DNA from: a virus
Taxonomy: Duplodnaviria > Caudoviricetes
DNA length: 60,534 nt
Reading direction: 5' to 3' (one strand)
Virus record (IMG/VR): IMGVR_UViG_3300034072_002238
Span: 1 to 60,534 of that record
Shown here: positions 33,001 to 36,000 of the stretch, one piece after another
Layout: each line of letters opens with the position of its first letter
Position numbering within the stretch: the stretch's first letter is position 1
Program-made: the position numbers

Positions 33001-36000
33001 GCCGCCTGCCCGATTGCTGCCCTAGTCGGCCCGCTCTCGCGGCGTCTGGCTACGGGGACTTCCGCAGACCCGTTACCCAACCACGGCGATTGAGCTGGCC
33101 GTCAGCTTGCCTGCCGCGCCTCAACGGGCGCGGGCCAGTTCCTCGATCTGCTCTTCGCAGATGCCTTCCGCCTTCACGACGACGACGCGCTGCGATGGCT
33201 CAAGATCAAACTCAAGCCGGGTTCGCCGGCCGCTCTTGTGTACGCATCGGATTGTCCCGACGCCGGGCAGCTCGATCTTCTGGCCTGGTTCAATGTCGTA
33301 TCGCAGCATCGACGGCTCTTTCCGGTCAGGATTGCGAGAGGTAGCGGTCTTGATCGGCCGGCGAGAGCCGTTTCAGGGCGGCTTCGTAAGCGACGCTGTC
33401 CTTATCCATCAGCCGGTCCAGATGCGCGAATTCGCCGCCGTCATCCGCGTCGGTAATGTCGCTTGCAGGGATGTGCGCCAGCGTCGGCGGCGGGGCAGGG
33501 CGCGCCTTATCCGACCTGACCGTGGGCTTCGGTGCCGGCGCAGGGGCCTGCTTGTCCTCGATCGGCAGCCCAAGCTCGGCCTGGATAGCCTTGTGGGCCT
33601 TGGCAAGGATTGCCGGGCTCAGCGGGTTGACTGCGGTGACCTGCAGTTCGCGCACCGTCTTGTCGAGCGCGTCGTAAAGAAATCCGCCCTTTTTGTACTG
33701 CGGATGGTCCTTGGTGAAGTTCTTGACCTCGTCGCGCCACGTTTCCAGGGCGGTTTCGCGCTGGGTTTCGATCCTGATCTCGCGCTTAAGCAGTTCCTCG
33801 CGCTGATCCTCGATTGCCTCGCGCTGCTCATTGAACTCCGTTGCCATCAGATCGCCGTCATCAAACTTTTTGGCGAGTTCGGCGAGCTGCTGCTTCAGCT
33901 CCGCTTTCTTTGTCGTGAGATCTTCCGCATCGAGCCATGCCGGGCGCTTTTCGTTGGCTTCGTCGGATGCGTCCTGGCCGGTTTGGTCAGCGCCAGCGGC
34001 CTCTGGTCCGGCGCCGGTTCCCTGGTCCGCTGCTGGTGCTTCTGCGGCGGCTGCGGCGGTGGCGGTGGCATCCGCGGCGAGTTTGGCCGCATCGGCGTCG
34101 TCTTGACCGTCGCCTTCTCCATCATCAGCGCCGTCAGTATCGCCGCCGTCCTTGTCGTCAGAACCACCATCTTCTGCGGTGGTGTCCTCGCCTTCGTCGG
34201 TTCCATCACCCTCACCCTCACCCTCATCTGCGTCGTCGTCGAGCAGCCCCTCGCGCTCTTCGTCCGTGAGAAGGGCCAGTTCGGCTTCGGTGAATTTGCT
34301 GCGCTCTGTGGTCATGTTGACCTCCTATCCTAGTCCGATGTTCTGTTGGGGTTGGGGTGCCTGCTGCGCCTGTGCCTGGGCAGCGGCGGCCTGCTGCTCT
34401 GCCGCAGCTTTGGCCTGCTCTTCGCCTTCCGTGCGCGAGACAAAGCCTGCCTCGTGCAGGAGATGGTCAGCTACGTCGGATACAACGGGCACCGCGGACA
34501 CGGTGCCGGCCGTCTCGACGGCGGTCTTCTGAGTTTCGACGCGGGTCTTGGCGGCCCTTGCTTGCGCTTCCTGCGCCTGGGCGTCCGACTTGCGGGCGTC
34601 GGCCATCAACTTCGCCAAGGCTGCCATGATCTGCTGCTGGTTCAGCGCGCTCATCTGATCAGCCTGAGCCTTGCGCGCCTGCTGATCGGGATCATCCTGC
34701 TCCGCATCGGGGTCAACCATGCCTGTGACCTGACGGATGCGCTTCACGAGCTCGTCGCGTTGCGGGATGTCCATCGATTCCACGATGAGATCGAGCGAGA
34801 TCATGACGAGCTGCGGCGCGACCGGCGCCAGCTTGCCGAGGAGGTCGAGCAGCTCGGCCACCTGCGCCTGACGGACGGACGCGCGCCAATCGTCTTCATC
34901 GATGATGAAATCAGCCTTGCTGCGGATGATATCGTTCTCCGGCAGACCGTCGTTGACCGTGACATACTCCGGAGAGCCCCGGCTGTTCGTGATCCGGAAT
35001 TGCTTCTCTTCGGTCATGAACTGCTCGACGAGCGACAGTGTCTTCTCGCCTCGCACCTGGTTCGCGAAGCGGAGATTGTCGAACAGCCCGGCTGTGGCGA
35101 GTGCGCCCTGCTCTTGGCGGGCGGAGATAGCAACGCCTGACACGGCGTTCGTTGATCTGCCAAGGTTCTCGTCGGTCACCCCGCCGACCTGTTGCACCAT
35201 CTGGATGTTCCGCGACATCATCTCGAGGTGATACTGCGACAGCTCGCGATCGACGTTGAGGGTGAGCGATGTGCCCGCCTTCTTCACAATCACCGCATCT
35301 GGACGCGCGGCTTCCTCGACAAGCTGGTTCACGTCTTCGACGGCGCCTTCATCCATGATGATCTTGTTCGTCGAGATGATGTGCAGCGCCTTGGATGCGC
35401 GCTTGTTGATGTCCGTCTGGATGTCCCGGATGTTGCGTACCAGGCCATACGGCATGTTGTCGCGAGCCCGGCGCTTGTTCCAGATCGGGGTGAACGGGTA
35501 GCGATTGTGCCGGTAAGGCGATTCCGACAGCCAGAGCAGACCGGCTGTGGTGAACAGCGCGACATACATCCGCATGACCGGCTTTTCGATCAGCGTCCCG
35601 TCGCCGCTGTCGATCGCATCGGCATGGCCGGCCGAATATTCGTCGAAGATCTCACCGGCGAACATCCCGCCGGCAATCTTCCTCGTCTTCACCGGGGCAC
35701 GGAACCACATTTCGAAGATGCGCAGGCGATCTCGGCGATACCCCGTGACGTGGTCGCTGCTGGTGCCGCTGTCGCTCCAGCCCTGGTTCTCCATCTCGGC
35801 CTGGTCCATGGCGTGGTCGCCAAAGGAATCGAGGCCCATCCAGTTCAGCTTGTGGTCAACGGAGCGCTCGATCAGGCTGCGGCGCTTGGGGAAGGTGGCG
35901 CAGGCAACGTCCTTGTCGACCCACTTGCTGCGACCGACATACCGCCCGTCCTCGATGTCGAGGCGTGTTGCGGTGCTGTCCCAGATCATGTTCCGCCACG

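Follow-up and report, generated by a model that had tools for sequence, protein, structure and literature searches.

The provirus IMGVR_UViG_3300034072_002238, complete at 60,534 bases and hereafter called the window (the whole stretch of DNA that was analysed), encodes a protein of 62 amino acids (aa) that, judged by its sequence and a structural model, is probably a very divergent CsrA-fold protein and a member of the phage 'CsrA-like regulator' family. Four late transcription units of the same window, for the capsid, lysis, a virion protein and a DarB-like protein, each appear to begin with a GCGC-A-N-G-A-(N)-GUGC hairpin, and there is good in silico evidence that these leaders are translational RNA switches that hide the ribosome site. 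We propose that the phage CsrA-like protein binds the leader hairpin and activates late translation, a reading of sequences and models that in our estimation falls just short of an even chance. The fold, the synteny, the hairpins and how far they are conserved, the competing helix, and how often gene and hairpin occur together were all analysed in silico.

A divergent CsrA relative in a phage morphogenesis module

The gene lies at 33121..33309 on the minus strand. The open reading frame (ORF) had been picked out in an earlier, sequence-only reading of the window and was confirmed by ORF calling, with an ATG start; its assignment as CsrA-like draws on PHROG 8397, profile comparison, a structural model and synteny. 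The likeness to CsrA, first read from the residue pattern, was borne out, weakly for the single sequence and significantly once relatives were included. Alone, the protein had no Pfam match at E ≤ 1 and did not reach the cut-off of PF02599 (27 bits), and it matched the PHROG 8397 'CsrA-like regulator' family weakly (E 0.0085, 17.1 bits, residues 1-37). A tblastn search of 50,697 phage records returned no match, a word-index homolog search recovered the protein itself alone, and phmmer of the single sequence against the Protein Data Bank (PDB) gave chance matches (E > 0.6). Against 1.8 billion representatives, phmmer found six proteins at E ≤ 0.001, two of them of similar length (P0005, 62 aa, 69% identity; P0007, 57 aa, 47% identity) and the remaining four long (583-1060 aa). 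One of the long proteins, P0006 (1060 aa), contains eight tandem repeats, each like residues 5-57 of the CsrA-like ORF (whole-library E 3e-13) and following the pattern ..VG..F.VPGIG.V.CTK..G.D.Y.E.G.H.W; it could be a repeat protein of the same beta unit or a compositional match.

Relatives of the protein scored higher against the Pfam CsrA family. P0007 reached 21.7 bits (E 2e-4), and the small ORFs found at the same place in named phages gave 32.3 (BcepMigl), 30.4 (Parlo), 29.8 (Itty13 and GP4), 26.8 (Skulduggery), 21.5 (PBC5), 20.4 (Atu_ph08), 19.2 (PEp14) and 17.3 bits (POI1126). Overall, 8 of ten relatives' ORFs matched at 17-32 bits, with JC1 left out of the comparison and no Pfam CsrA match for the ORF of Mwe-JY25. 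The window protein can be aligned with these small ORFs from residue 1. A mixed profile of six sequences matched RsmE (PDB 2jpp) at E 6.4e-6, and hhalign matched a profile of the window subfamily (7 sequences) to 24 Pfam-positive phage CsrA-like proteins at 97.2% (E 3.5e-11), in an alignment that spans residues 1-42 only. Used alone against PDB, the subfamily profile found RsmE at just E 0.32. From these alignments the N-terminal two thirds appear clearly homologous to CsrA, and the C-terminal third appears to have drifted. A codon comparison with the close relative L117 revealed 15 synonymous and 17 non-synonymous differences among 63 codons, about what would be expected of a coding sequence under moderate constraint.

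The protein shares with CsrA, RsmA and RsmE (PF02599; PDB 2jpp, and 1y00 for E. coli CsrA) a length of about 60 aa and the N-terminal pattern ML.L...G..v.ig..vti.v....g..vrlg. In CsrA, RNA is contacted by L2, L4, R6 and R/K7 of strand beta1 and by R44 of strand beta5, on which the key arginine sits. The window protein keeps L2, has Y, I and E at positions 4, 6 and 7 against L, R and R in E. coli CsrA, and carries a basic residue (R41 or K46) near the beta5 region. It departs from CsrA in failing Pfam on its own, in having I6-E7 for the basic pair and in a beta5 region that does not align.

A comparison of an AlphaFold2 model with CsrA bore out the family assignment. The model was built on a 60-sequence alignment and had a predicted local distance difference test value of 84; its strands span residues 11-14, 18-26 and 29-36, and its helix spans residues 52-61. 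This beta-rich predicted fold with a C-terminal helix is that of CsrA and RsmE, and the CsrA family gave the only clear structural matches. All of the Foldseek ranks 1-12 were CsrA, RsmE or RsmA chains (template-modelling score 0.52-0.81, E 0.04-0.4), and VIA-align placed seven CsrA-family entries at Z 4.6-5.9 over 47-57 aligned residues, values that are modest for such a small protein, with the next unrelated entry at 2.1. The monomer model leaves the first and fifth strand regions unpaired, as would be predicted for a strand-swapped dimer. A two-copy complex prediction scored 0.30 against a mark of 0.42 and, having been run without controls, weighs neither for nor against a dimer.

The place of the gene is conserved. 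By tblastn, the scaffold-like protein encoded directly upstream of it was found in 60 phage records, with hosts in Ralstonia, Burkholderia, Erwinia, Pseudomonas, Sinorhizobium, Agrobacterium, Ochrobactrum, Serratia and Microcystis. In each of the ten named relatives examined, the next gene after the scaffold-like one is a small ORF of 56-79 aa; this ORF is annotated 'CsrA-like regulator' in seven of the ten, and 'hypothetical' in Atu_ph08, PBC5, POI1126 and Mwe-JY25. The 'CsrA-like regulator' genes of Bcep22, BcepMigl (gp35), JC1 (gp47), GP4 (gp04), Itty13 (gp22), PEp14, Parlo and Skulduggery have the same place and size as the window gene. The Bcep22-like proteins are homologous to the window protein by profile and their capsid leaders bear the same hairpin, but, unlike the window protein, they score at or near the Pfam threshold (19-32 bits). 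The occurrence of CsrA-like genes beside the scaffold-like gene in Bcep22-like phages, which the sequence-only reading had cited as established, is therefore upheld by the synteny of the named relatives. In most of them the capsid leader comes directly after the gene. The capsid module has relocated in the window, Atu_ph08 and PBC5, which have four or five hairpin leaders where the Bcep22-like phages have one or two; all three retain the CsrA-like gene, though it no longer adjoins the capsid gene. The CsrA-like gene is best explained as a core gene of the Bcep22-like podophage morphogenesis module, not a host-directed accessory gene.

Hairpin leaders of the late genes and a predicted competing helix

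The window contains exactly four matches to the pattern GCGCAWGA(N)GTGC, against 0.12 expected, and none of 100 shuffles reached four. A covariance model scored the four leaders at 27-32 bits and the fifth-best site at 13.6. All four hairpins are in sense orientation, 24-29 nucleotides (nt) before a start codon. The capsid leader (8755..8836, plus strand; 27.0 bits) runs from TTGCAA through a 17-nt spacer and TAAAAC to the hairpin GCGCAAGATGTGC (8794-8806), GGAG and the ATG at 8834, where the gene for the major head protein begins (8834..9934, plus strand; phrog_334, E 4.9e-129). The lysis leader (8680..8760, minus strand; 31.7 bits) has a palindromic TTGCAA, the hairpin GCGCAAGACGTGC (8712-8724), AGGAG and an ATG at 8682, followed by the endolysin gene (7930..8682, minus strand; phrog_315, E 5.6e-41) and then a holin-like ORF (7412-7930; phrog_3427, E 2.1e-8). 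The remaining two leaders share the hairpin CCCGCGCATGAGTGCGG after CTATAAC: the virion-protein leader (17641..17698, plus strand; 30.3 bits; core 17660-17671, AAGGAG, ATG 17696) precedes a virion structural protein gene (17696..18898, plus strand; phrog_8003, E 5.9e-145), and the DarB-like leader (31569..31629, minus strand; 29.2 bits; core 31599-31610, ACGGAG, ATG 31571) precedes the called ORF of a 2918-aa DarB-like virion/ejection protein (22815..31571, minus strand), whose syntenic genes in Atu_ph08 and PBC5 are annotated 'DarB-like antirestriction'. A repeat scan recovered the last two leaders as a 49-nt inverted pair (17641-17689 and 31581-31629).

A −10-like box lies about 10 nt upstream of three of the hairpins (TAAAAC once, CTATAAC twice); the scan gave no clear −10 for the lysis leader. 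The capsid and lysis leaders diverge from a common palindromic TTGCAA (8755-8760), a possible −35 box for either direction, and the same back-to-back arrangement with 'ttgcaa' was seen in Atu_ph08 (L023) and PBC5 (L014). The consensus site of RsmE and CsrA is CANGGANGU. The leader motif, CA-N-GA-(N)-GU in a hairpin loop and flanked, like the RsmE site, by CA...GU, equals that consensus minus one G. The sequence-only reading had described the loops in these terms, and those it quoted are present in the four leaders: CAAGATG at 8797-8803 (plus strand), CAAGACG at 8715-8721 (minus strand), and CATGAG within 17660-17671 (plus strand) and 31599-31610 (minus strand). Rfam gave no family at gathering score in the whole window, or at E ≤ 1 in 8600-8900. 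No multi-hairpin sponge RNA was found in the window, where the covariance model finds four motif copies only.

The same hairpin precedes the DarB-like genes of Atu_ph08 and PBC5 and is present in the capsid leaders of BcepMigl, Itty13, POI1126, GP4, PEp14, Skulduggery, Parlo and Mwe-JY25, so that it recurs in relatives infecting alpha-, beta- and gammaproteobacteria. A looser pattern matched five whole phage records 5, 8, 7, 5 and 5 times, compared with 1, 1, 0, 1 and 2 times in the reversed control; by context, the leader-type copies number four in Atu_ph08, four in PBC5, five in POI1126, two in Itty13 and one in BcepMigl. In Parlo (L040, ~3870-3885) and PEp14 (L038, ~3865-3880) the hairpin is followed by a run of 5-6 U and also looks like a promoter-proximal intrinsic terminator; no U run follows the window copies.

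The loop reads A-N-G-A-(N), with U at the first position in Skulduggery. N is A, U or G, so the loops of BcepMigl, GP4 and Skulduggery happen to read GGA. A covariation of protein and loop, with GGA loops accompanying Pfam-like proteins and AGA or UGA loops accompanying divergent ones, was ruled out by Itty13 and Parlo, and single phages mix loop types. The sequence-only reading had spoken of an altered-specificity CsrA. The window loops lack GGA, but the feature is not particular to the divergent protein: Itty13 (29.8 bits) and Parlo (30.4 bits) encode Pfam-positive proteins and have AAGAC loops, so the AAGA/AUGA loop is not an adaptation special to the window protein. If specificity is altered, this would be a trait of the whole phage family.

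The stem was examined in 25 aligned leaders, found with a search pattern that fixes the three central of the six pairs and the loop GA. A G.U pair was invariant in 25/25. Pair 14-26 was GC in 23, AU in one and GU in one; pair 13-27 was CG in 6, UG in 5, AU in 2, UA in 2, GC in 1 and unpaired in 9. Shuffles matched the observed pair values in 8-26 of 500 trials.

The window leaders were folded from just past the −10 box to +25. None of the four has the small hairpin as its minimum free energy (MFE) structure; in each, the loop and 3' arm are predicted to pair instead with the region of the Shine-Dalgarno sequence (SD) and start codon, in a longer helix. Across the four leaders, 9-15 of 17 SD/AUG positions are predicted to be paired, with 15 of 17 in the capsid leader; the fold of the virion-protein leader, in which the 3' arm pairs with the SD, has a z score of −2.96. 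Forcing the small hairpin raised the energy by 2-9 kcal/mol and left fewer SD/AUG positions paired. The alternative helix is found likewise in most of the 25 leaders, where the complement often ends in the start codon (CAUGAGUG pairs with CACUCAUG). When the 3' half of each hairpin was paired with its own ribosome-site region, the mean duplex energy was −15.9 kcal/mol, against −11.7 with the regions of other phages and −8.5 with shuffles; none of 2000 permutations was as low as the cognate mean, a contrast to which base-composition differences between phages may add. Such complementarity to the leader's own ribosome site points to translational control and argues against a purely DNA-level signal.

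Gene and hairpin co-occur, as the sequence-only reading had suggested checking across phages. Starting from the gene, all 16 viral-contig loci found with the protein alignment have the hairpin downstream, in its standard form in 6 and as the variant GCGCAGGAGCTG in 10. In 10 of the 16 the hairpin escaped covariance model R1 run with default filters, and the variant was seen by eye after a GATAAT box. Starting from the motif, two exact 15-mers returned 221 loci, most of them chance matches inside unrelated coding sequence. An SD, a start and an open frame follow in 42, of which 5 lie inside same-strand open frames and the other 37 are leader-like. A CsrA-like ORF is encoded in the records of 34 of these 37 (18 within the locus, 5 on the same contig via another locus and 11 by whole-record search). 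Of the three exceptions, two are fragments (8% and 11% complete) and the third is a 96%-complete record with an atypical context, so a motif kept without the gene was not clearly seen.

Two further uses of the element were noted. A variant capsid-leader element, GCGCAGGAGCTGC, occurs in ten related 60-kb contigs (L067-L074, L079 and L081), about 55 nt after the stop of the CsrA-like gene and following TTGCAA, 17 nt and GATAAT; its 3' arm is GCUGC, not GUGC, with no obvious ribosome-site complement by eye. In L086 and L196, loci with a CsrA-like ORF of unusual length, the 15-mer CGCGCATGAGTGCGG stands at the gene start (aggag, with the ATG inside the motif), which is a different use of the same sequence.

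Gene neighbourhood and other features of the window

The CsrA-like ORF starts 16 nt past the stop of the scaffold-like gene (33326..34315, minus strand, 329 aa; phrog_8246, E 1.8e-70), and the P22-type portal gene lies at 34325..36550 on the same strand (Pfam PF16510, E 1.6e-181). The minus-strand gene string before the scaffold-like gene comprises a primosomal/rep-like gene, TerS, TerL, a methyltransferase and the P22-type portal. The sequence-only reading had put the ORF near the end of a cro-rep-terminase-portal-scaffold operon; rep-like, TerS/TerL, portal and scaffold-like genes do share its strand, but cro was not identified. After a gap of 186 nt the ORF is followed by two more ORFs on the same strand, and it is therefore near the end of the gene string and not at it. 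These encode a Tad2-like (Thoeris anti-defence 2) protein (32515-32934, minus strand; Pfam PF11195, E 1.4e-22) and, next downstream and overlapping the Tad2-like gene, a 155-aa protein (phrog_882, function unknown). A promoter and terminator scan of 31400-34400 gave no match on the minus strand. The absence of a Q antiterminator, late sigma factor or RNA polymerase, also remarked on in the sequence-only reading, holds for the 53 window translations scanned with PHROGs, among which no Q, N-like, sigma-factor or RNA polymerase match was found; it is weak evidence, however, because many of these translations match nothing.

Elsewhere, the window has an integrase gene at 1-1257. Of the sequencing runs listed, the one that contains the window in full is a DNA run of a subsurface metagenome, which may be its source, and none is an RNA run. 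Five separate ORFs match DNA methyltransferase families (3892-6027, 36577-37194, 44214-44765, 46200-47087 and 59050-59907), a methylase load that is unusually heavy for a 60-kb prophage and that comes in addition to the giant DarB-like protein. A 31-nt repeat, CTTGAC...GGTTCCGTTTA.CG.AAC.ATG, is present in three copies (43593-43657 and 54843-54873). Two are in tandem at the divergence point of the early region, beside a 195-aa ORF without a family, and the repeats may be operators or promoters of the lysogeny switch. A second 31-nt block, CGCCACCACGGAGGG...ATGA, lies at three plus-strand gene junctions of the early region (56490-56520, 57912-57942 and 59026-59056) and looks like a reused ribosome-site or coupling cassette.

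How the leader switch may be worked

A CsrA-fold protein would be a small RNA-binding protein, and its most likely target would be the phage's own late mRNA. We propose that each late leader can form either the 5' hairpin or a longer helix of greater stability, made by pairing of the loop and 3' arm with the SD and start region, that would hide the ribosome site. A CsrA-like dimer would bind the ANGA loop of the 5' hairpin and hold its 3' arm, leaving the ribosome site open and activating late translation. As the gene is far down the rep-terminase-portal-scaffold string, the protein would be expected to appear late after induction and so to time the late genes. Binding, the direction of control and the timing are what we infer here. 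On the sequences and models, it is about evenly balanced, leaning slightly towards yes, that the protein binds these hairpins; that it both binds and activates is a more doubtful proposition, though a serious one. A leader that inhibits itself makes a trans-acting opener sensible. The model put forward in the sequence-only reading is in these respects partly supported, and is plausible and testable. Rhizobial genomes are reported to be without recognisable CsrA homologs (PMC7143759), and B. cepacia and B. cenocepacia to be without a chromosomal csrA (PMC7366521); with hosts that have no CsrA of their own, mimicry of the host protein is unlikely in rhizobial and Burkholderia phages. Natural CsrA homologs are also described as varying in the strictness of their GGA requirement (PMC13443453).

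Several observations weigh against this reading. The window protein begins MLRYDIEPGQ where E. coli CsrA has MLILTRRVGE, so that positions 6-7 are not basic, and its C-terminal third, the beta5 region, cannot be aligned with any relative outside the subfamily. GGA in the window leaders is confined to the SDs, the hairpin loops being AAGA or AUGA; the canonical action of CsrA is repression, and a GGA in all four SDs would suit a repressor. Binding of the protein to the leaders is itself a proposal drawn from sequence comparison and models, and the putative position of the hairpin at the 5' end is read from −10-like boxes. The competing helix is weak in the window lysis leader (cognate duplex −11.4 kcal/mol, rank 13 of 21), in Parlo, in Mwe-JY25 and in the Itty13 capsid leader. 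Owing to the fixed search pattern, the invariance of the central pairs and of the loop GA is partly circular, and the outer pairs alone are a fair test; moreover, paralogy among the leaders and kinship among the phages mean that the counts do not represent independent events. Since the hairpin accompanies all core genes of the lineage, co-occurrence cannot single out the CsrA-like gene, and in the 96%-complete record L265/G014, which has no CsrA-like ORF, the 15-mer precedes a gene start, in an atypical context (within a longer inverted repeat and with no −10 box). Finally, another regulator could be hidden among the window ORFs that have no family match.

The protein might bind the same leaders and repress them, the dimer taking both the hairpin loop and the GGA of the SD and blocking the ribosome, and thereby limit or balance late protein synthesis as a feedback, for example of capsid against scaffold. 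All four window SDs contain GGAG, the spacing of about 15-20 nt between hairpin and SD fits two-site binding by a CsrA dimer, and the gene stands just ahead of the capsid leader in most relatives. Repression is also given as the commonest CsrA mechanism (PMC7492729). However, the leaders already inhibit themselves through the helix, so a repressor would add little where a default-off leader calls for an opener, and a repressor made only after induction would not silence the lysogen's lysis genes behind host-type promoters; we consider repression unlikely. That the hairpin is instead a DNA or transcription signal unrelated to the CsrA-like protein (a late promoter element, an operator or a nut/qut-like site) would agree with its position about 10 nt after −10-like boxes, with the U run that follows it, as in a promoter-proximal terminator, in Parlo and PEp14, and with the use of short promoter-near stem-loops by antiterminators such as lambda N at boxB. 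In duplex DNA, though, the invariant G.U pair would be mismatched; every copy is oriented in the sense direction, the window copies lack the U run, no N-, Q- or sigma-like protein is among the 53 translations, and the loop and 3' arm show a complementarity that is specific to their own leader's ribosome site, which points to translation. Such a signal is quite improbable.

Two other accounts leave the switch without the CsrA-like protein as its reader. The protein could reprogram host mRNAs for defence, motility or metabolism, with the switch worked by co-transcriptional folding, another phage factor, temperature or the ribosome. The csrA of JC1 has been regarded as a moron (PMC9144972), phage RsmA homologs are hypothesised by Campa et al. 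to take advantage of the host's Rsm control of CRISPR-Cas (PMC8450108), and the many window ORFs without a known family could include a further regulator. Morons, however, do not behave like this gene, which sits in the morphogenesis module of 10/10 relatives, across three proteobacterial host classes and a Microcystis phage; the hairpin resembles a CsrA-type site; and rhizobia and B. cepacia/cenocepacia, being reported to lack CsrA, presumably lack its small-RNA network as well (PMC7143759, PMC7366521). A host-directed role is rather unlikely. The fixed place between the scaffold-like and capsid genes would also suit an assembly helper or packaged protein for which the CsrA fold is merely a scaffold. 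One unique peptide of JC1 CsrA was reported in purified virions (PMC9144972), and the canonical RNA-binding residues are poorly kept, the family having K, E or H at the key arginine as read by eye. Yet a single peptide is weak evidence, as the authors of that report say, the gene is kept in the window, Atu_ph08 and PBC5 although it is away from the capsid gene, and the N-terminal 42 residues strongly keep the CsrA pattern. We regard a virion role as improbable.

Activation by the CsrA-like protein would have parallels in other systems. Com of phage Mu, a phage protein about 60 aa long, binds a hairpin in the leader of the late gene mom, opens an adjacent inhibitory stem and frees the ribosome site; Com has a zinc finger, is not related to CsrA and acts on a single gene. 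A small phage protein is likewise proposed here to free the ribosome site, in four operons that include capsid and lysis. As in lambda N/boxB and Q/qut, a short promoter-proximal element is common to the transcription units and one small phage protein is its presumed reader, but lambda N and Q act on transcription elongation and the ribosome-site complementarity here points to translation. Lambda-type antitermination combines a boxB hairpin that has a GNRA-like pentaloop with a boxA element and an arginine-rich N protein. The window loops start with A (AAGAU, AAGAC and AUGA), and there is no N-like family among the 53 translations. The nearest CsrA parallel is ymdA, whose translation CsrA is reported to activate by destabilising a structure that sequesters the SD (PMC7492729). 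Each leader hides the ribosome site in a structure of its own, which a CsrA-type protein is proposed to refold for 30S binding. At ymdA, CsrA binds two GGA sites and destabilises the inhibitory hairpin directly; here the protein would stabilise a competing 5' hairpin. The window protein is also phage encoded, its proposed targets are phage late operons, and the loops it would read are A-N-G-A without GGA. It differs further from CsrA in that its host group is reported to lack both CsrA and sponge RNAs (PMC7143759).

Phage CsrA-like genes have been catalogued for more than 10 years, and no function is given for them in the literature examined. Their presence in phages has been recorded (PMC7366521), they have been called morons or possible virion proteins (PMC9144972), and an anti-CRISPR use of phage CsrA/RsmA homologs has been suggested (PMC8450108). 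In a search of full texts, supplements excluded, we found no paper linking phage csrA genes to a leader hairpin or to late-gene control, and no description of the leader switch; the founding Bcep22 paper (PMC3187461) lay outside the search. The window gene adds a new and highly divergent member to a known phage family. The conserved leader switch, with its proposed pairing with the CsrA-like protein, is put forward as a new form of CsrA-type control that is partly supported.

The comparative data give phage CsrA-like proteins a concrete and testable target, a hairpin-versus-ribosome-site switch heading the late operons, and even if the protein is not its reader, this leader switch matches no Rfam family. 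It is possible, though we hold it less probable than otherwise, that an ANGA-reading CsrA-family protein, acting on translation, is the master switch of the late genes in a whole podophage group. By locking the 5' hairpin it would keep those bases from burying the ribosome sites of the capsid, lysis, tail and ejection-protein mRNAs. That group may take in the Bcep22-, Atu_ph08/PBC5-, Itty13- and PEp14-like phages, with alpha-, beta- and gammaproteobacterial and perhaps cyanobacterial hosts. Late mRNAs in these phages might then be constitutive or driven by host promoters, with no need of an antiterminator, sigma factor or phage RNA polymerase. If true, the pair would represent a natural CsrA variant with a changed RNA code, and a compact protein-RNA pair orthogonal to host regulation for synthetic biology in CsrA-free bacteria. 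It would also be a new way for phages to time their late genes, at translation rather than at transcription.

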